Source: a virus
Reading direction: 5' to 3' (one strand)
DNA length: 64,000 bases
Virus record (IMG/VR): IMGVR_UViG_3300043788_000040
Span: 1 to 64,000 of that record
Shown: positions 29,311 through 35,245 of the stretch, one piece after another
Numbering within the stretch: the stretch's first letter is position 1
Layout: every line of letters begins with the position of its first letter
Program-made: the position numbers and the translations under genes
The notes under the pieces: generated by a model
What the model saw: the letters and a program-made list of their open reading frames with translations, nothing else
The model's database searches: none
Told to the model about the DNA's origin: nothing

Positions 29311-29958
29311 ATGCCCGTTGGCGCACAGGTCAGGAAATCTGTTTACGATTCGTCCGAGGAGCTTGATCTCGTCCACAAGGCGAAGCACGGGGACGAGACC
29401 GCTTTTCGTTCGCTCTACGATGCGCACCACAGGCATGTGATCGTGACCATCACCCGGTTCGTCAAGGACGACGATGCGGCGATGGAAGCCACCAACACCG
29501 CTTTTTTCAAAGCTTGGAAAGCACTGCCGAGATTTGAGGAACAGGCGAAGTTCAGCACGTGGATAACACGCATCGCCATCAACGAAGCACGGATGCTCCT
29601 GCGCACCAACAAGAGAAGGCAGCGTGAAGTATCACTTGACACCCTGTTGTCCTACGGACCGGACGGGGAACGCTACGAGGGTTCTTCTGACGTGAGTTAT
29701 GCGCAGCGCTGGCTGGCAATCCGAGACCTAGAACTTGAAGGCATCGCCGACCGCCAGCTTCTTGAACGTGCGATTGGGAAAGTCCCGAAAAAGTTTCGTG
29801 AGATTCTCCGGCTCCGGTTTTGGGAAGGTCTGTCAGAACGTGAGATTCAGGAGAAGGTCAGTGCCAAGGAGTCCAAAGTAGTCAGCATGTCGGCTGTGAA
29901 GTCCCGCATCTTACGGGGACGCAATTTGCTCATTGAACAAGTTGAACAAATTTCATAA
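29311..29958 (+). CDS. ECF-type RNA polymerase sigma factor
   Basis: Region 2 GDETAFRSLY...FFKAW..L.RF...FSTWITRIAIN; region 4 AVKSRILRGR. Confidence 0.9.
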   Translation: MPVGAQVRKSVYDSSEELDLVHKAKHGDETAFRSLYDAHHRHVIVTITRFVKDDDAAMEATNTAFFKAWKALPRFEEQAKFSTWITRIAINEARMLLRTNKRRQREVSLDTLLSYGPDGERYEGSSDVSYAQRWLAIRDLELEGIADRQLLERAIGKVPKKFREILRLRFWEGLSEREIQEKVSAKESKVVSMSAVKSRILRGRNLLIEQVEQIS

Positions 29959-29975
29959 CGAGAGGACTTTTATCC

Positions 29976-30317
29976 GTGTACAACAAAGAGTTTTCACCCC
30001 GACCGGGCGAACGAGAAGCTGTCATAGGCGATGTTTCTACTCCCCTGTCCTTGGGCTTCCACCTGAGGATCGCGCAGCCCCACGTGGACATGCTGAACGA
30101 GTTGCCGATGTTCCGTGACCTGACCACGGCGAAGCTTTTCACGCTGCTCCCGAAGAAGTACCACAAGTTCGTGCCGCCAATCGGCGAGGATTTGCAGATC
30201 AGGGAAGCGGCATTCCAGCGGGAAGAGCGCATGGCACGGGCGGTCATAATCGGCTTGATAGCAAAGCCGGAGCACATTGAACAGCATCAGGCGCAGAGAT
30301 TCCTAGAACGGCTGTAA
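29976..30317 (+). CDS. Hypothetical protein
   Basis: GAGGA RBS before GTG. Confidence 0.6.
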   Translation: MYNKEFSPRPGEREAVIGDVSTPLSLGFHLRIAQPHVDMLNELPMFRDLTTAKLFTLLPKKYHKFVPPIGEDLQIREAAFQREERMARAVIIGLIAKPEHIEQHQAQRFLERL

Positions 30318-30337
30318 CCGAGGGCGAAAGATTCCCC

Positions 30338-30375
30338 TTGACAACTATCATCAAAAATGAGAATATCAGGTATTA
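30338..30375 (+). promoter_or_regulatory. Putative promoter(s) of the tRNA operon
   Basis: TTGACA 30338-43 with a weak -10 GAATAT at 17 nt; phage GTATT motif at 30370-74. Confidence 0.45.
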
Positions 30376-30384
30376 GGTAGAGAC

Positions 30385-30525
30385 ATGAGCTTCCTCAACG
30401 CCAATTCGACAGCAGCCGACACCATCTTCGGACGGAACGTAGTCGCCTGCGCAGGTACGGTCGCCGCTGAAGCGGCGGCGGTGAATGAGGGAGATACCAT
30501 GTCCCTTGGAGGGTTTGGCGAGTAA
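30385..30525 (+). CDS. Leader peptide (46 aa) of the tRNA-array attenuator
   Basis: MSFLNANSTAADTIFGRNVVACAGTVAAEAAAVNEGDTMSLGGFGE*; 25/46 codons are GNN; stop lies inside the antiterminator. Confidence 0.75.
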   Translation: MSFLNANSTAADTIFGRNVVACAGTVAAEAAAVNEGDTMSLGGFGE

Positions 30526-30555
30526 CTAGAGACCAAACCAAAGATTCCAAGGGAC
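30501..30555 (+). promoter_or_regulatory. Antiterminator hairpin
   Basis: GTCCCTTGGA(30501-10)/TCCAAGGGAC(30546-55) 10 bp plus GGTTTGG/CCAAACC 7 bp; shares 30549-55 with the terminator. Confidence 0.8.
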
Positions 30556-30587
30556 GAACCGAAAGATGGTTCGTCCCTTTTGTTTTT
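30549..30587 (+). terminator. Intrinsic terminator (attenuator) just upstream of the first tRNA
   Basis: AAGGGACGAACC/GGTTCGTCCCTT 12 bp stem plus TTTTGTTTTT. Confidence 0.85.
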
Positions 30588-30589
30588 GT

Positions 30590-30666
30590 ACCCGGTTAGC
30601 TCAGTTGGTTAGAGCGCTACTCTTACAAAGTAGAGGTCGTGAGTTCGAGCCTCACACTGGGTACCA
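30590..30666 (+). tRNA. tRNA-Val(TAC)
   Basis: Cloverleaf, CTACT-CTTACAA-AGTAG, TTCGAG T-loop, CCA. Confidence 0.95.
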
Positions 30667-30675
30667 GTTTTCTGT

Positions 30676-30750
30676 GGGTCGGTAGCATAATTGGGAATGC
30701 GCCTCTCTTGCAAAGAGGAAGATGGAGTTCGAATCTCCCCGTATCCACCA
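30676..30750 (+). tRNA. tRNA-Ala(TGC), bulged acceptor stem
   Basis: CCTCT-CTTGCAA-AGAGG, G3:U70, CCA. Confidence 0.85.
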
Positions 30751-30755
30751 AATTG

Positions 30756-30833
30756 TGCCGCCCCGGACGGCAGAGCAGCCGGAGCCTTCGGGCTACGGTG
30801 TTGGAGCGCATAGGCTCCTTAAGCATCCGGGCG
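30756..30833 (+). ncRNA. Unassigned structured RNA (possible pseudoknot)
   Basis: Three hairpins including a UUCG tetraloop; loop CCCGGA complementary to downstream TCCGGG. Confidence 0.45.
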
Positions 30834-30843
30834 AAAAATTTAT

Positions 30844-30920
30844 GGAGATGTAGAGGAGAGGCCGTCCTCAGGTCCCTGTCACGGACCAAATCGTGGGTTC
30901 GAATCCCATCATCTCCGCCA
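30844..30920 (+). tRNA. tRNA-Asp(GTC)
   Basis: GGTCC-CTGTCAC-GGACC, G73, CCA. Confidence 0.93.
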
Positions 30921-30925
30921 AATTT

Positions 30926-31142
30926 GGCAAACCTGCCCCAGTAGAACGGCAGCGGTGGCTGTGCAGAAGCCGGGGACAAGTGCCGATTGCATGATCGGGG
31001 ACCAAAGCTTTTCAGCCCGCGAGTGGGGCGTGACCTCTGCAAAGGGAACGTTTCGCTGATCCTAGTGGATAACGCGGGGAAGAACCACATGAGCTTGCAG
31101 GCAAGTGTGGGAGCGAGGTGCGATCCCTCCAAGATTGTTTGT
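30926..31142 (+). ncRNA. Unassigned ~215 nt multi-hairpin RNA
   Basis: Serial hairpins and a 3' T-arm-like element between tRNAs; no credible ORF. Confidence 0.4.
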
Positions 31143-31217
31143 TGCGGCGTACCCAAGTGGTAAGGGAGAGACCTGCAAAGTCTTTATTCGGGAGTTCGAT
31201 TCTCCCCGTCGCATCCA
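31143..31217 (+). tRNA. tRNA-Cys(GCA)
   Basis: GAGAC-CTGCAAA-GTCTT, U73, CCA. Confidence 0.93.
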
Positions 31218-31218
31218 C

Positions 31219-31295
31219 GGTGGCACGGTCCAGTTGGAGTGGACGCCTCCCTGTCACGGAGGAGAACGCGGGTTCAAGTCCCGCTGTCACCGCCA
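31219..31295 (+). tRNA. tRNA-Asp(GTC)
   Basis: CCTCC-CTGTCAC-GGAGG, CCA. Confidence 0.95.
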
Positions 31296-31310
31296 AGTTT
31301 AGGAGAGACG

Positions 31311-31523
31311 GTGAGGATTCTCTACGACGAGCAGCGGCATCTAATAGCAGTGCCGTACAGCGTGGAGAATCTTCACAAGGCAGCCGAGGTGCTGGGTATT
31401 AAACGCTGCTGGTTTCACAAAGACCACTATGACATTCCAAAGCGCATGGTTGCGCGGATGCCGGAGACAGTGGCAGAAAAAGTTTCGCCGCGAGAGATAG
31501 CGAGGATTGTACGCGGCAAGTGA
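31311..31523 (+). CDS. DUF4031-like small protein
   Basis: AGGAG RBS + GTG; HL....ENLH..A..LGIKR.WF...HYDI motif. Confidence 0.65.
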   Translation: MRILYDEQRHLIAVPYSVENLHKAAEVLGIKRCWFHKDHYDIPKRMVARMPETVAEKVSPREIARIVRGK

Positions 31524-31527
31524 GTTT

Positions 31528-31603
31528 GCTACGGTCGGCAAGTTGGAAAGCTATCTGCCTGCAAAGCAGACATACGTGGGTTCGAACCCCACCCGTAGCT
31601 CCA
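31528..31603 (+). tRNA. tRNA-Cys(GCA)
   Basis: TCTGC-CTGCAAA-GCAGA, U73, CCA. Confidence 0.9.
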
Positions 31604-31607
31604 AATT

Positions 31608-31956
31608 TGTACTGAGTGGGACAATCGCCGCCGCGCAAGCGGGGGAGGAAAGTCCGGGCACCATAAGCAACCGTACCAGTTAACGGCTGGGCATCCGGGT
31701 CAGAAACGGATGACGATTAGAGGACAGTGACGAACCGATTCAGTTCGGGTGAGACGACCAATCTCTACGGGGTGCAATCTCAAATAGGCCGTGAGTCCTG
31801 CTTGGACGAACAACGTCGGCGAAAGCCGATAGCAAACGGCGGGTTGAGAGCTTGAGGCGTGCAGCGATGCACGTCCTAGACGAATGATTGTCACCGTTCT
31901 GCATCTGGCGCAAGCCGATTGGAACGGTACAGAACCCGGCTTATAAACTCAGTACA
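31608..31956 (+). ncRNA. rnpB: RNase P RNA (bacterial type A-like, compact)
   Basis: P1 TGTACTGAGT/ACTCAGTACA; GAGGAAAGTCCGGGC (31645-59); ACAGAACCCGGCTTA (31929-43); P2 GACAATC/GATTGTC. Confidence 0.92.
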
Positions 31957-31963
31957 GAGTTTC

Positions 31964-32037
31964 GCGGAACTAGCTCAATGGTAGAGTCTCGGTCTTCCAA
32001 ACCGAGGACGCGGGTTCGATTCCCGTGTTCCGCTCCA
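31964..32037 (+). tRNA. tRNA-Gly(TCC)
   Basis: TCGGT-CTTCCAA-ACCGA, U73, CCA. Confidence 0.95.
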
Positions 32038-32042
32038 AGATT

Positions 32043-32118
32043 GGGGCTGTAGCTCAGTTGGGAGAGCGCATCCATGGCATGGATGAGGTCAGGGGTTCGA
32101 CCCCCCTTAGCTCCACCA
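32043..32118 (+). tRNA. tRNA-Ala(GGC)
   Basis: CATCC-ATGGCAT-GGATG, G3:U70. Confidence 0.95.
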
Positions 32119-32130
32119 GTTTTGTAGTTC

Positions 32131-32206
32131 GGGGAAGTAGCTCATTTGGGAGAGCGCATCGTTCGCAACGATGAGGTAGCGGGTTCGACCCCCGTCTTCT
32201 CCACCA
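32131..32206 (+). tRNA. tRNA-Ala(CGC)
   Basis: CATCG-TTCGCAA-CGATG, G3:U70. Confidence 0.95.
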
Positions 32207-32219
32207 GTTTTGTAGCAGT

Positions 32220-32297
32220 GCGCTGTTAGCTCAGCCCGGAGTGAGCGCTTCCTTGACATGGAAGAGGTCAGAGGTTCAAATCCTCTACGGCGCACCA
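32220..32297 (+). tRNA. tRNA-Val(GAC)
   Basis: CTTCC-TTGACAT-GGAAG, CCA. Confidence 0.93.
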
Positions 32298-32305
32298 GAT
32301 TTTAT

Positions 32306-32347
32306 GCCGGAGGTCGGAGAGATACCGACACAAACTCTCCGGCTCCA
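32306..32347 (+). ncRNA. 42 nt tRNA-like minihelix ending UCCA
   Basis: GCCGGAG/CTCCGGC 7 bp + T + CCA, internal GTCGG/CCGAC hairpin. Confidence 0.55.
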
Positions 32348-32351
32348 GATT

Positions 32352-32426
32352 GGCCCGGTCGTCTACTGGCTAGGACATCAGCCTTTCAAGCTGGGGAAGG
32401 GGGATCGAAACCCCCTCGGGCTACCA
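32352..32426 (+). tRNA. tRNA-Glu(TTC)
   Basis: TCAGC-CTTTCAA-GCTGG, CCA. Confidence 0.92.
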
Positions 32427-32435
32427 AATTTGAGG

Positions 32436-32510
32436 GCGCGATTAGCTCAGTGGGAGAGCGCTCGCTTCACACGCGAGAGGTCGCAGGTTCAAACCCTGCA
32501 TTGCGCACCA
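32436..32510 (+). tRNA. tRNA-Val(CAC)
   Basis: CTCGC-TTCACAC-GCGAG, CCA. Confidence 0.95.
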
Positions 32511-32542
32511 GTTTTGCGGTACTATAGTAGAGAGGCTTCAAA

Positions 32543-32616
32543 GCGGAATTTGCATAATGGTAGTGCGAGACCTTGCCAAGGTCTAGGCACGGGTTCGATT
32601 CCCGTATTCCGCTCCA
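32543..32616 (+). tRNA. tRNA-Gly(GCC)
   Basis: AGACC-TTGCCAA-GGTCT, U73. Confidence 0.95.
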
Positions 32617-32631
32617 AATTTTGAGTAGTAC

Positions 32632-32705
32632 GCGGGCGTGGTTCAATGGTAGAATTGGAGCTTCCCAAGCTTCGGACGTGGGTTCGATTCCCATCGCCCG
32701 CTCCA
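32632..32705 (+). tRNA. tRNA-Gly(CCC)
   Basis: GGAGC-TTCCCAA-GCTTC, U73. Confidence 0.95.
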
Positions 32706-32719
32706 GATTAGAGGCTCTC

Positions 32720-33424
32720 TTGGAATCGCTGTACAACGTCAACGGACTGATCTTCTGGGGTGAGCGGGAGATCAACGCACGCAAGATAGTGGAGAGCCAC
32801 TTAGTTCAGGCGGTCAAGGACAGCCTGAAGAGCATGAACCGGGCGTGGGAGTTCTTCCAGGTGGAGGCTCCGATCCTGACGCCAAAGCCGTTCGTGAACC
32901 CGAACTACACGGACGAGGACTTGTTTGCGACAGGCGGCACGGCGAAGGACAGCGACGGGACGGATGTGGCGCTGATTGCCCGTCCTGAGACCACAATGGG
33001 TTCTTACGCGTGCGCGAGGTACCTGTTGAACCCGCACAACGAAACAAAGGTGCGGATGCCTCTGGTGGTCTGGCAGCATGGCAAGAGCTTCCGGCGTGAG
33101 CAAGACCAGCCGACAAAGTTCATGCGGCTGAAAGAGTTTAACCAGCTTGAGTTTCAGTGCATCTACAGTCCGACGACTGCGATGGACTACAGCTTGAAGC
33201 TGCTCGCGGATGTCGCCATCGCGCTGACGAAGTTGGTAGGCGAGACGAGGATCACGCCGAGCGATAGGCTGCCGGACTACAGCGAGTCCACGATAGACAT
33301 TGAACACGCTGAGAGCGGTATGGAGCTTTGCTCCTGCTCAAGGCGCAAGGATTTTGAAGGTGCGAAGGTTCTAGAAGTTGCGGTGGGCACCGACCGCGTT
33401 GTGAAACATTTTCTGGGCGTGTAG
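32720..33424 (+). CDS. Glycyl-tRNA synthetase-like class II aaRS catalytic core (no anticodon-binding domain)
   Basis: GAGG RBS + TTG; VEAPILTP, RPETT, motif 2 SFRRE...MRLKEFNQLEFQ, motif 3 EVAVGTDR. Confidence 0.75.
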   Translation: MESLYNVNGLIFWGEREINARKIVESHLVQAVKDSLKSMNRAWEFFQVEAPILTPKPFVNPNYTDEDLFATGGTAKDSDGTDVALIARPETTMGSYACARYLLNPHNETKVRMPLVVWQHGKSFRREQDQPTKFMRLKEFNQLEFQCIYSPTTAMDYSLKLLADVAIALTKLVGETRITPSDRLPDYSESTIDIEHAESGMELCSCSRRKDFEGAKVLEVAVGTDRVVKHFLGV

Positions 33425-33490
33425 CTCAACTGGGAGAGCGCGTGCTTTGCAAGCATGAGGTAGCAGGTTCGACCCCTGTCACGTCCACCA
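33415..33490 (+). tRNA. tRNA-Ala(TGC)
   Basis: CGTGC-TTTGCAA-GCATG, G3:U70; overlaps the aaRS-like stop codon. Confidence 0.95.
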
Positions 33491-33495
33491 ATTTT

Positions 33496-33571
33496 GGGGC
33501 TATAGTGCAGCGGCCTAGCACATCACCCTCTCACGGTGAAAACGCGGGTTCAAATCCCGCTAGCCCTACCA
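33496..33571 (+). tRNA. tRNA-Glu(CTC)
   Basis: TCACC-CTCTCAC-GGTGA, CCA. Confidence 0.95.
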
Positions 33572-33618
33572 ATTTCAAACCCATAGTGTGATTGTTTGTC
33601 GCCGGGATGCGACGCCCT

Positions 33619-33780
33619 ATGGACAAGCGTTGTCTGCACTGTAACGAAGTGATGGATGATGAGCGCGAGAAATACGTAGGCGTTTGCTTCCGGTGCCGCA
33701 GGTTCGGGCTTCTCACCGGAAAATTCCCCAAAAGCTTGGAAGAAAGAAAACGTTGGGAAGAGGGTCTTAAAAACGGCTGA
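33619..33780 (+). CDS. Small Zn-finger protein
   Basis: CLHC...CFRC. Confidence 0.5.
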   Translation: MDKRCLHCNEVMDDEREKYVGVCFRCRRFGLLTGKFPKSLEERKRWEEGLKNG

Positions 33781-34042
33781 TCCAGCGCCGCCCGAGCCGC
33801 CCGGCTTTCTTGGCAGCACGAGTAGCCGTCCTTCCGGCCTTAGGGCAGTCAATCAGTTTCGCCGAGCAGCGTGGAAGCTCCCCGCCCCTCGGACCCGCCC
33901 CGAAGTACTTTCCCGGTCTCCCGCAACCATACTGGCACAGGACTTCCCCGGATTCTGGCGTGTTCATGCGGTGGTCAAACTCCTCGTCGGTCTCTGCTGG
34001 CTGAGTGTCCTCGGGGAAGGCGGTCTGGAATTTCTCGTCCAT
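33767..34042 (-). CDS. Hypothetical protein with CxxGC motif
   Basis: CQYGCG...C......C; fills the gap between divergent genes. Confidence 0.5.
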   Translation of the reverse strand: MDEKFQTAFPEDTQPAETDEEFDHRMNTPESGEVLCQYGCGRPGKYFGAGPRGGELPRCSAKLIDCPKAGRTATRAAKKAGRLGRRWISRF

Positions 34043-34076
34043 ACTGAAGATTTCAGTATTTGGTAGAGAGGTTTCT

Positions 34077-34583
34077 ATGGCTAAAGCAAAGGCTCAATTG
34101 AAGGTCATTTACCACGAATTCTTCTGCGACGACGTGCTCAGCGAGTTTGACGGGTTCTTTGAGATCGTCAACGGCAAGGTGGAGTACGTCACCGGGTGGT
34201 TCGCCAACGACGCCAACTGGCGCGGCGAGTACATGGGCGGTCTGATAGAGCACTTCGGCGGTGACGTGCAATCCCTGCCTGAGAAGCACTACAAAGCAGC
34301 CCGCACCTTGGCGGCGAAGGCCTACGGCATAGATGAGCAGGAAGACCACGACGGTGAGTACGAGTACGTCCAGCTTTACTTCCGCAAGGGAACGTCCGAC
34401 AAGGTTTACTACATCAACCTGTCCCGTGACGACAACGGCTGGTTCGTCAACGTAGAGTACGGGCGTCGCAACGGTACTCTCAAGGACGAGATGAAGTGCG
34501 AGGCGACCCACTACACGGAAGCCAAGGGAATTTACGACAGCATTCTGAACGAGAAGCTCAAGAAAGGCTACAAACGCAAGTGA
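34077..34583 (+). CDS. WGR-domain protein
   Basis: LYFRKGTSDKVY.I...WFV.VEYGRRNG....EKLKKGY. Confidence 0.75.
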   Translation: MAKAKAQLKVIYHEFFCDDVLSEFDGFFEIVNGKVEYVTGWFANDANWRGEYMGGLIEHFGGDVQSLPEKHYKAARTLAAKAYGIDEQEDHDGEYEYVQLYFRKGTSDKVYYINLSRDDNGWFVNVEYGRRNGTLKDEMKCEATHYTEAKGIYDSILNEKLKKGYKRK

Positions 34584-35245
34584 GAGTAGTTTTCATTTCC
34601 GACACACACGGGCTACACGGACGCATGACTGCTCCGATCCCCGAGGGCGACATCCTGATTCACGCGGGCGACGGCACCAACGTCGGGCGCATGAATGAGA
34701 TCGCGGCCGCAGGAGTGTGGCTGCGCAGCCTGCCCCACAAGCACAAGGTTTTCGTCGCTGGTAACCACGACTGGATGTTTGAGAAGAACTGTGCCATGGC
34801 GGTGCAACTATTGAACCAAGGTCTCACTGGCGATACGTTGAACTCAAAGATCGTGTATCTTGAGGACAGCGCCGTTGAGATTGAGGGTCTGAAAATCTAT
34901 GGCAGCCCTTGGCAGCCGAGGTTCTTGGACTGGGCATTCAACTTGGATCGCGGTGAATCAATCAAGAAGAAGTGGGACTTGATCCCCGAGGGTCTGGACA
35001 TCCTGATCACGCACGGCCCGCCGATGGGAATCCTTGACCAGACCAACCCGGTTCTTGGCACCGATCACCTTGGTTGCGAGGAACTCATCAAAGCGGTTGA
35101 GCGGGCGAAGCCGAAGGTTCACGTCTTCGGTCACATCCATGGCGGGTACGGCAAGGTGCAGTATCCGAACACACTGTTCATCAACGCCGCGATCTGCGAC
35201 GAGGCGTACAAACCTTGGCGGGAGCCTGTTGTCGTTGACCTATGA
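34580..35245 (+). CDS. Metallophosphoesterase
   Basis: SDTHG, HAGD, GNHD, THGPP, FGHIH. Confidence 0.9.
   Translation: MRVVFISDTHGLHGRMTAPIPEGDILIHAGDGTNVGRMNEIAAAGVWLRSLPHKHKVFVAGNHDWMFEKNCAMAVQLLNQGLTGDTLNSKIVYLEDSAVEIEGLKIYGSPWQPRFLDWAFNLDRGESIKKKWDLIPEGLDILITHGPPMGILDQTNPVLGTDHLGCEELIKAVERAKPKVHVFGHIHGGYGKVQYPNTLFINAAICDEAYKPWREPVVVDL

Follow-up and report, generated by a model that had tools for sequence, protein, structure and literature searches.

Few ribozymes are universal in cells, and the RNA component of RNase P is among them; in textbooks it has the status of a cellular or organellar gene. The presence of such an RNA within a tRNA array of a phage raises the question of whether a virus can maintain this ribozyme in a working form, from which organism it was acquired, and what it does for the phage. 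The window analysed here covers positions 1 to 64,000 of an IMG/VR virus record of 170,563 bp, which CheckV rates as ~54% complete; the whole phage genome is roughly 320 kb. The viral nature of the record is reflected in a portal protein (phrog_16240, E 8e-23), a virion structural protein and a weak tail-fibre match. The replication genes include a family A DNA polymerase (PolA), a clamp loader, helicases and a UvsX-like recombinase, and they are accompanied by ribonucleotide reductase, ThyX, an ECF-type sigma factor, a release factor and Ro60/Y-like RNAs. For most of the large ORFs of the record no protein family is matched, as is usual in huge phages.

A preliminary description of this DNA had placed a phage-encoded RNase P RNA at 31608-31956, inside a tRNA operon. 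The features of the locus are as follows:

30339..30579, + strand: candidate start of the transcription unit, with TTGACA-17-GAATAT (identified by eye), an ORF and a terminator-like hairpin
30590..33571, + strand throughout: array of 16 tRNAs (Val, Ala, Asp, Glu, Gly, Cys) with encoded CCA (ARAGORN, Rfam)
31528..31603, + strand: tRNA-Cys(GCA) with encoded CCA, 5 nt upstream of rnpB (ARAGORN/Rfam)
31606..31959, + strand: RNase P RNA gene (rnpB, class A), with the outermost P1 pairs included (RF00010, mapped structure, covariation)
31964..32037, + strand: tRNA-Gly(UCC), 4 nt downstream of the Rfam end of rnpB (ARAGORN/Rfam)

Identity and fold of the RNA

The Rfam covariance model of the bacterial class A RNase P RNA (RF00010) covers positions 31609-31959 on the + strand, with model positions 1-367 of 367 aligned. 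The score of 181.3 bits lies well above the gathering cut-off of 100 (E 6.4e-57), which bears out the original call, and the proposed coordinates agree with the Rfam span to within 3 nt. All conserved blocks of the family are present: the P4 strands, the GCAA of J5/15, the AAAUAGG and CGGGU of L15/16, GCUUGAG, and UAGAnGAAUG. Class B (RF00011; P5.1, P10.1, P15.1) is not supported, as clan competition retains the class A match alone, and the mapped fold includes the class A features P15-P17 and P6. The window therefore holds a full-length class A RNase P RNA gene on a phage contig. The RNA is ~351 nt long and is predicted to act as a ribozyme on the 5′ leaders of pre-tRNAs.

The whole fold was mapped by hand from the model alignment, and every pair was checked. 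The main elements are located as follows:

31645..31659, + strand: P4 5′ strand and CR-I block (GAGGAAAGUCCGGGC), with bulged U31653 (mapped; covariation)
31665..31668, + strand: 5′ strand of the P6 pseudoknot, AAGC (or AAGCA) in J5/7, pairing with GCUU at 31800-31803 in the P17 loop
31671..31770, + strand: specificity domain with P7, P8, P9, P10/11 and P12, without P13/P14 (model alignment, mapping)
31778..31849, + strand: P15-P16-P17 arm (model alignment; P15 and P16 covary)
31856..31875, + strand: P18, 8 bp, GCGA tetraloop (7 of 8 pairs change on both sides in the clade)
31893..31928, + strand: P19-like long hairpin with a GCAA loop (mapped; varies within the clade)
31929..31943, + strand: P4 3′ strand and CR-V block (ACAGAACCCGGCUUA) (mapped; covariation)

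The two P4 signature strands named in the preliminary description, GAGGAAAGTCCGGGC at 31645-31659 and ACAGAACCCGGCTTA at 31929-31943, are found at these positions. They form a helix of 8 bp, in which 31650-52 and 31654-58 pair with 31935-42 and U31653 is bulged. The other helices that had been recognized by the first reading are also recovered in the mapped fold. P1 consists of ten consecutive Watson-Crick pairs (31608-31617/31947-31956) and can be extended to 12 pairs by one U-G and one U-A, while P2 is a perfect 7-bp helix (31620-26/31886-92). The short P3 has 7 pairs, including one G.G, and a GCAA loop, and the P18- and P19-like hairpins occupy 31856-75 and 31893-31928. In addition, P5, P7, P8, P9 and P10/11 are placed, so that together with P6 all catalytic-domain helices (P1, P2, P3, P5, P15, P16, P17, P18) are mapped. 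P12 is limited to 4 bp (31735-38/31745-48), and 3 nt stand in place of the 45 model positions of the P13/P14 block.

The P15-P17 arm contains the L15/16 loop strands AAAUAGG (31782-88) and CGGGU (31840-44), both conserved in the clade of related phage RNAs. The GGU of this loop is the predicted binder of the tRNA 3′-CCA, which fits with the encoding of CCA by all phage tRNAs. Rfam places P17 in a GAAA-capped hairpin at 31815-31830 with four mismatches. The hairpin at 31795-31807 supersedes this placement and makes a better P17, since P6 is formed by its loop. The GAAA-capped hairpin is thus an additional element, and among the clade it is common only to L057.

Phage relatives, covariation and the probable cellular donor

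An exact search of IMG/VR with the P4 motif gives 75 loci, some of which lie at contig ends and perhaps represent host flanks. On contigs longer than 70 kb, 17 of 17 such loci are rnpB genes within a tRNA array, on the tRNA strand, with the catalytic domain intact, and their size ranges from ~350 nt (308 bits) down to 207-243 nt (72-118 bits). The clade of the window RNA, defined by its S-domain 20-mer, has 16 member loci in IMG/VR, and the contigs that carry them measure 2-463 kb; its full-length copies score 139-209 bits each, and all lie among tRNAs. The same RNA is present on 12 further contigs of 20-463 kb, mostly in the slot between tRNA-Cys and tRNA-Gly. The downstream tRNA-Gly(UCC) follows rnpB by 4-7 nt in 9 of 13 clade members, and the nearest upstream tRNA is tRNA-Cys(GCA) in most of them, at a distance of 5-6 nt in five. 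Four large relatives have portals 70-84% identical to that of the window phage, and three of them, of 332, 456 and 463 kb, are rated 100% complete. These four relatives carry exactly one rnpB each, located 60-300 kb from any contig end. The independent contig L039 matches the window at 98.6% identity over 7.1 kb, with none of the 99 differences falling in rnpB.

The mapped structure was evaluated on a 13-sequence MAFFT alignment (A2), the quality of which is poor for P3 and for the 5′ ends of L080, L085 and L086. Standard pairs occupy 89.7% of the cells over the 13 sequences, compared with 73.1% in shuffles (0 of 500 reach the observed value) and 32-43% when each partner is shifted by 1-3 columns. 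In 58 of 107 pairs both sides change, and every catalytic-domain helix that varies contains such pairs. P4, P5 and P7 are 100% paired with compensated pairs in each (5 of 8 in P4), and P8 is 95% paired, with 4 of its 5 pairs compensated. The strands of P6 were split by MAFFT, and the pseudoknot was therefore examined separately: a 4-6-nt complement of J5/7 is found in the P17 loop of all 13 clade members. At least six different sequence pairs realize this interaction, namely AAGCA/UGCUU, GAACAG/CUGUUC, GAGCAG/CUGCUC, GGAU/AUCC, GGACA/UGUCC and CCAC/GUGG.

The comparison with cellular RNAs describes the constraint on individual positions. In 105 cellular rows, 128 columns reach a conservation of 97% or more; of these, 83-92% are retained in the phage copies and 86.7% in the window RNA, and in the remaining columns the window is ~43% identical to the cellular rows. 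Among the 17 departures of the window from the cellular-conserved columns, 10 are compensated pairs (P4, P5, P9, P11, P15) or a P6 change. The pattern is that of a working structured RNA rather than a decaying copy. In the specificity domain, P7-P12 are present and covary, and the strands of J11/12 and J12/13 that read the T-loop are nearly invariant within the clade. Several departures affect positions that are unpaired and invariant in cells: 31728 A>U in J11/12, 31753 A>G and 31757 G>A after P12, and the deletion of one C in P11. A further change of this kind, 31845 A>U, lies beside the CGGGU loop. Such substitutions could weaken the recognition of the T-loop or of CCA.

The preliminary description had pointed out a compact S-domain with a short P12 and no obvious P13/P14. 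The architecture itself is as described, but as a peculiarity of the phage it does not hold, as cellular rnpB of Burkholderiales is built alike. The S-domain 20-mer of the clade is found in at least 120 bacterial genomes, nearly all of them Burkholderiales, with Polaromonas, Variovorax, Hydrogenophaga, Limnohabitans, Rhodoferax, Rubrivivax and Sutterella among the matches listed. In Rfam alignments of the cellular Burkholderiales RNAs, which score 188-229 bits, the 43 model positions of the P13/P14 block are reduced to 0. Viral miniaturization, in which the missing P13/P14 would be a phage reduction, is ruled out by this identical architecture. The absence of P13/P14 is thus a trait of the donor lineage and a variation within the family, not a reason for exclusion from RF00010. 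The window RNA is a bona fide member of RF00010 with the betaproteobacterial sub-architecture, and what is unusual is the genome in which it resides.

The same architecture in the cellular RNAs argues for a capture from a Burkholderiales-type bacterium. The window RNA shares 70% identity or less with any sampled cellular copy and 85% with its closest phage relative. In a maximum-likelihood tree from which the long-branch phage row L086 was left out, and for which the cellular rows had been pre-selected by the 20-mer, biasing the inference of the donor, the other 12 phage rows form one group with moderate support (65/80, 66% of bootstrap trees). Its sister is a set of three cellular MAG rows. 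The cellular nature of one of them, L115, is clear from the genes next to its rnpB, which encode DnaK, ribosomal protein L25 and RsmD. The phage group and the MAG rows lie, with long branches involved, inside a set with Sutterellaceae and Burkholderiaceae supported at 100/99. On a 20-mer-selected cellular sample and with long branches, a single ancient capture from a genome of betaproteobacterial type, with vertical inheritance since then, appears most likely. The genomic context, on the other hand, differs between cells and phages: a tRNA within the 8-kb locus was found in 0 of 108 full-length cellular loci among the matches listed, so the tRNA-array context is specific to phages. If the donor assignment is correct, the Burkholderiales-style S-domain provides a host clue for an uncultured lineage of 330-460-kb phages.

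The locus L086:949-1243, on a 51.8-kb contig, has a very long branch and an odd base composition, with Val(GAC) downstream followed by Ser tRNAs. This copy may be a separate capture or a fast-evolving one.

The tRNA array and the proposed maturation pathway

The location inside a tRNA operon, as originally proposed, is supported by the shared strand of rnpB and both neighbours and by spacers of 5 and 4 nt. The record carries 31 tRNA genes in three arrays, all encoding CCA, and only one rnpB. A generic sigma-70 scan gave no promoter anywhere in 29800-34600, and neither promoter- nor terminator-like sites separate rnpB from the flanking tRNAs. A candidate promoter, TTGACA-17-GAATAT with TG upstream of the -10, is located at 30339-30367; it was picked by eye and is outside the results of the generic scan. 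Between this candidate and the first tRNA lies a 46-codon ORF (30385-30525). A strong GC-rich hairpin of 13 bp, terminator-like in that a T-run follows it, stands just ahead of the first tRNA (30549-30579). Because this hairpin precedes the first tRNA, rnpB is possibly placed behind an attenuator.

Several protein genes are found in and near the array. The gene of a small DUF4031 protein (31338-31523, +, E 6e-12) separates tRNA-Asp from tRNA-Cys, a short distance ahead of rnpB. Because this ORF lies among its tRNAs, the array is a mixed mRNA/tRNA/ribozyme unit. The ORF at 32706-33424 (+) gives a weak match to PF00587, the core of class II aminoacyl-tRNA synthetases (27.8 bits against a cut-off of 29.3), and may encode a truncated or divergent synthetase-like protein among the Gly, Ala, Val and Glu tRNAs. 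Immediately upstream of the array lies the gene of the ECF-type sigma factor (29311-29958). In the region 29311-30589, the window differs from L039 by 3.2% in the sigma gene and by 6.3% in the following ORF and leader, with surroundings below 0.8%.

The trailers that follow the CCA of the tRNAs (30590-33600; G000 68467-79681) are nearly all AATTTG, GTTTTG, AGTTTG or ATTTTG, an R-W-U-U-U-G-like motif. It flanks rnpB as well, with CCA-AATTTG-TACT... leading into the gene and the similar AGAGTTTC after it. The tRNAs and rnpB may have a processing signal in common, perhaps a site of the RNase E type. Elsewhere in the record, two RNA ligases, one of them Rnl1-like, and a tRNA nucleotidyltransferase (CCA-adding) are encoded (G000 100177-101514, 136536-137648, 137927-139276). 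The CCA-adding enzyme is kept although all tRNAs of the record encode CCA. Together, the ligases and the CCA-adding enzyme look like a tRNA repair kit beside a maturation ribozyme.

A bacterial RNase P RNA acts with the protein RnpA, and the preliminary description had noted no rnpA gene in the window. A PF00825 search extends this statement to the whole 170-kb record, with no match at E<=1. At the same threshold RnpA was not found in five relatives, three of them rated 100% complete; the control search found it in 10 of 14 reference genomes. Given this absence from the record and from three complete relatives, a host-supplied RnpA is a reasonable inference and a plausible partner. Assembly with the host protein is plausible also because the protein-binding core of the RNA is of the likely host's own type. 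The ~54% completeness of the record leaves room for a divergent protein partner that the window phage itself may encode.

From the observed identity, fold, covariation and synteny, we infer co-transcription, a processing route, the use of host RnpA, catalysis and a benefit to the phage. Most likely, rnpB would be co-transcribed within a polycistronic tRNA precursor. Its 3′ end would be set by the RNase P cut at the 5′ end (+1) of tRNA-Gly(UCC), and its 5′ end would result from the 3′ processing of the upstream tRNA-Cys. The first rnpB molecules would be released by the host RNase P or by cleavage in cis. The phage RNA would then pair with the host RnpA protein, and RNase P capacity would be raised or secured for the removal of 5′ leaders from a burst of CCA-encoding phage pre-tRNAs. 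With good confidence, the locus is interpreted as a phage-borne rnpB of betaproteobacterial type, captured long ago, inherited vertically in 330-460-kb phages and maturing pre-tRNAs with host RnpA. A more far-reaching proposal, in which this giant-phage lineage, and by extension many unrelated huge phages, would own a working RNase P as a self-releasing cassette, with a tRNA supply independent of the host RNase P RNA, is about evenly balanced between right and wrong. If it is true, the CCA-adding enzyme, the RNA ligases and the release factor would form with the ribozyme a largely autonomous line of tRNA production. Host RNase P RNA is stable, which leaves no obvious need for a second copy. 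Should the protein rather than the RNA limit the holoenzyme in the host, more RNA alone would not raise its amount.

Metagenomic contigs can be chimeric, and with some of the 75 P4-motif loci at contig ends, perhaps in host flanks, the locus could be cellular DNA misjoined to a phage contig. This is extremely improbable, as rnpB lies 31 kb into the contig with spacers of 4-5 nt to phage tRNAs, 7.1 kb of the region are reproduced independently by L039 at 98.6% identity, relatives hold the gene 60-300 kb inside their contigs, and the sampled cellular copies have no neighbouring tRNAs. A host rnpB acquired by chance and drifting to decay would agree with the clearly cellular (betaproteobacterial) type of the sequence and with the fact that phages do acquire host DNA. 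Such a functionless passenger is contradicted already by the covariation and retention data: the RNA is at most 70% identical to the sampled cellular copies, yet it keeps 87% of the cellular-invariant positions, and its helix changes are compensated. Moreover, it persists as one copy per genome in largely the same slot across portals diverged to 70%, which makes this explanation very unlikely, if somewhat less so than a misassembly.

The remaining alternative accepts that the RNA is made but assigns it a main job other than the 5′ maturation of phage pre-tRNAs. It could titrate RnpA and skew host tRNA processing, process other phage RNAs, such as the Ro60/Y-like RNAs or mixed mRNA/tRNA transcripts, or stand in for a host RNase P RNA that becomes a target in the course of infection or defence. 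The changes at several unpaired, cell-invariant positions of the S-domain speak for this possibility, as do the lack of a phage-supplied protein subunit, the protein-coding ORFs of the array, which would need to be separated from the tRNAs, and a genome rich in other RNA-handling genes. Against it, conservation and covariation like those of a working ribozyme extend over the full catalytic core, the loop that binds CCA and the module that reads the T-loop, and the conserved distance of 4-7 nt to a tRNA 5′ end in the arrays points to tRNA work. For an RnpA sponge in particular, intact P4, P6 and L15 would be unnecessary. A main role outside pre-tRNA maturation is considered unlikely, though it is the least improbable of the three alternatives. 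Under the preferred reading, in which the RNA matures phage pre-tRNAs with host RnpA, a ribozyme would join the translation-related genes known from viruses, and tRNA 5′ maturation could limit phage growth strongly enough for selection.

Comparison with other RNase P RNAs

The closest cellular counterparts are the Burkholderiales rnpB genes, for example those of Parvibium lacunae, Sutterella and Variovorax paradoxus. They share with the phage RNA the helices P1-P12 and P15-P18, including P4 and P6, the absence of P13/P14, and a short P12 whose loop (GAUUCAGUUC) is almost the same. In J11/12 and in the strand after P12 the match is also nearly complete (ACAGAGACGAG ... GGGUGAAACGGGCAA), and a P19 hairpin is present in some cellular copies. 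The phage copy differs in being virus-borne, in its position 4-5 nt from the tRNAs of an array and in the absence of rnpA from the genome. It also has the extra GAAA-capped hairpin after P17 and the few substitutions at cell-invariant unpaired positions. The M1 RNA of Escherichia coli is alike in the P4 strands with the bulged U, the GCAA of J5/15, the CGGGU of L15/16, P6, P8/P9 and a GNRA-capped P18. Its partner is the small RnpA protein (C5), and the same kind of partner is expected for the phage RNA. M1 RNA is 377 nt long, has P13/P14 (as does the Thermotoga maritima reference) and is expressed from its own promoter as a single gene, whereas the phage RNA of ~351 nt is without P13/P14 and is apparently punctuated out of a tRNA precursor.

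In organelles, a bacterial-type rnpB is retained by a genome without a gene for the bacterial protein subunit. Organelle-encoded RNase P RNAs exist in plastids and in the Paulinella chromatophore, and some of the plastid RNAs are reported to be functionally defective (PMC4264200). The organelle copies descend from an endosymbiont; the copy described here belongs to a huge phage of lytic type and appears canonical throughout.

The RNA described here is a candidate for the first virus-encoded RNase P. Within a partial coverage of the literature, no description of a phage or viral rnpB was found, and a prior report is possible; the papers on rnpB annotation in that coverage make no mention of phages. 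In the same partial coverage, no statement was found that betaproteobacterial RNase P RNAs lack P13/P14. In GenBank phages (INPHARED), a blastn search with the window RNA returned only a mis-filed Salmonella contig, and no annotated similar RNA was found in the GenBank phage records. Two other phage rnpB queries gave a few unannotated metagenomic 'Bacteriophage sp.' records and Microcystis phage MaAM05. The latter (L214, MW495066.1 115321-115473) was rejected as a clean phage rnpB, as its neighbours are fabI, engB and mtgA and no tRNAs are nearby. The rnpB-like stretch of MaAM05 is unannotated and its context is cellular-looking. The genome of PhiMa05, related to MaAM05, has been discussed in a published comment and the reply to it (PMC13623518, PMC13623530). 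What is new here is the donor type, the inherited compact S-domain, the absence of RnpA in complete relatives and the conserved junction between rnpB and tRNA-Gly(UCC).

Other phage copies in IMG/VR likewise lie in a tRNA array on the tRNA strand with the catalytic domain intact. In contrast to L050, L076 and L037, which have lost most of the S-domain and score 72-118 bits, the window clade keeps a complete, host-like specificity domain. The range from the full-size RNAs of the window clade to half-size phage variants would offer a natural series for studies of a minimal RNase P.

Reduced or divergent copies are located at L050:10596-10802 (207 nt), L076:2248-2468 (-) (221 nt), L037:5635-5877 (243 nt) and L063:1748-2055. 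These four copies of 207-308 nt score 64-118 bits, three of them under the Rfam threshold, and lie in tRNA arrays on contigs of 71-203 kb. L037 also carries a tmRNA, and a group I intron is found near the L034 copy. Long insertions occur in P9 of L083, L079, L077 and L087 (A2 columns ~200-290), and L080 has a P3 insertion in its 5′ part. A TGGTTGGAAGCG...CCCAACC-like module is common to these P9 and P3 insertions, and it may represent a structured element, mobile or recurrent, that inserts into the ribozyme.
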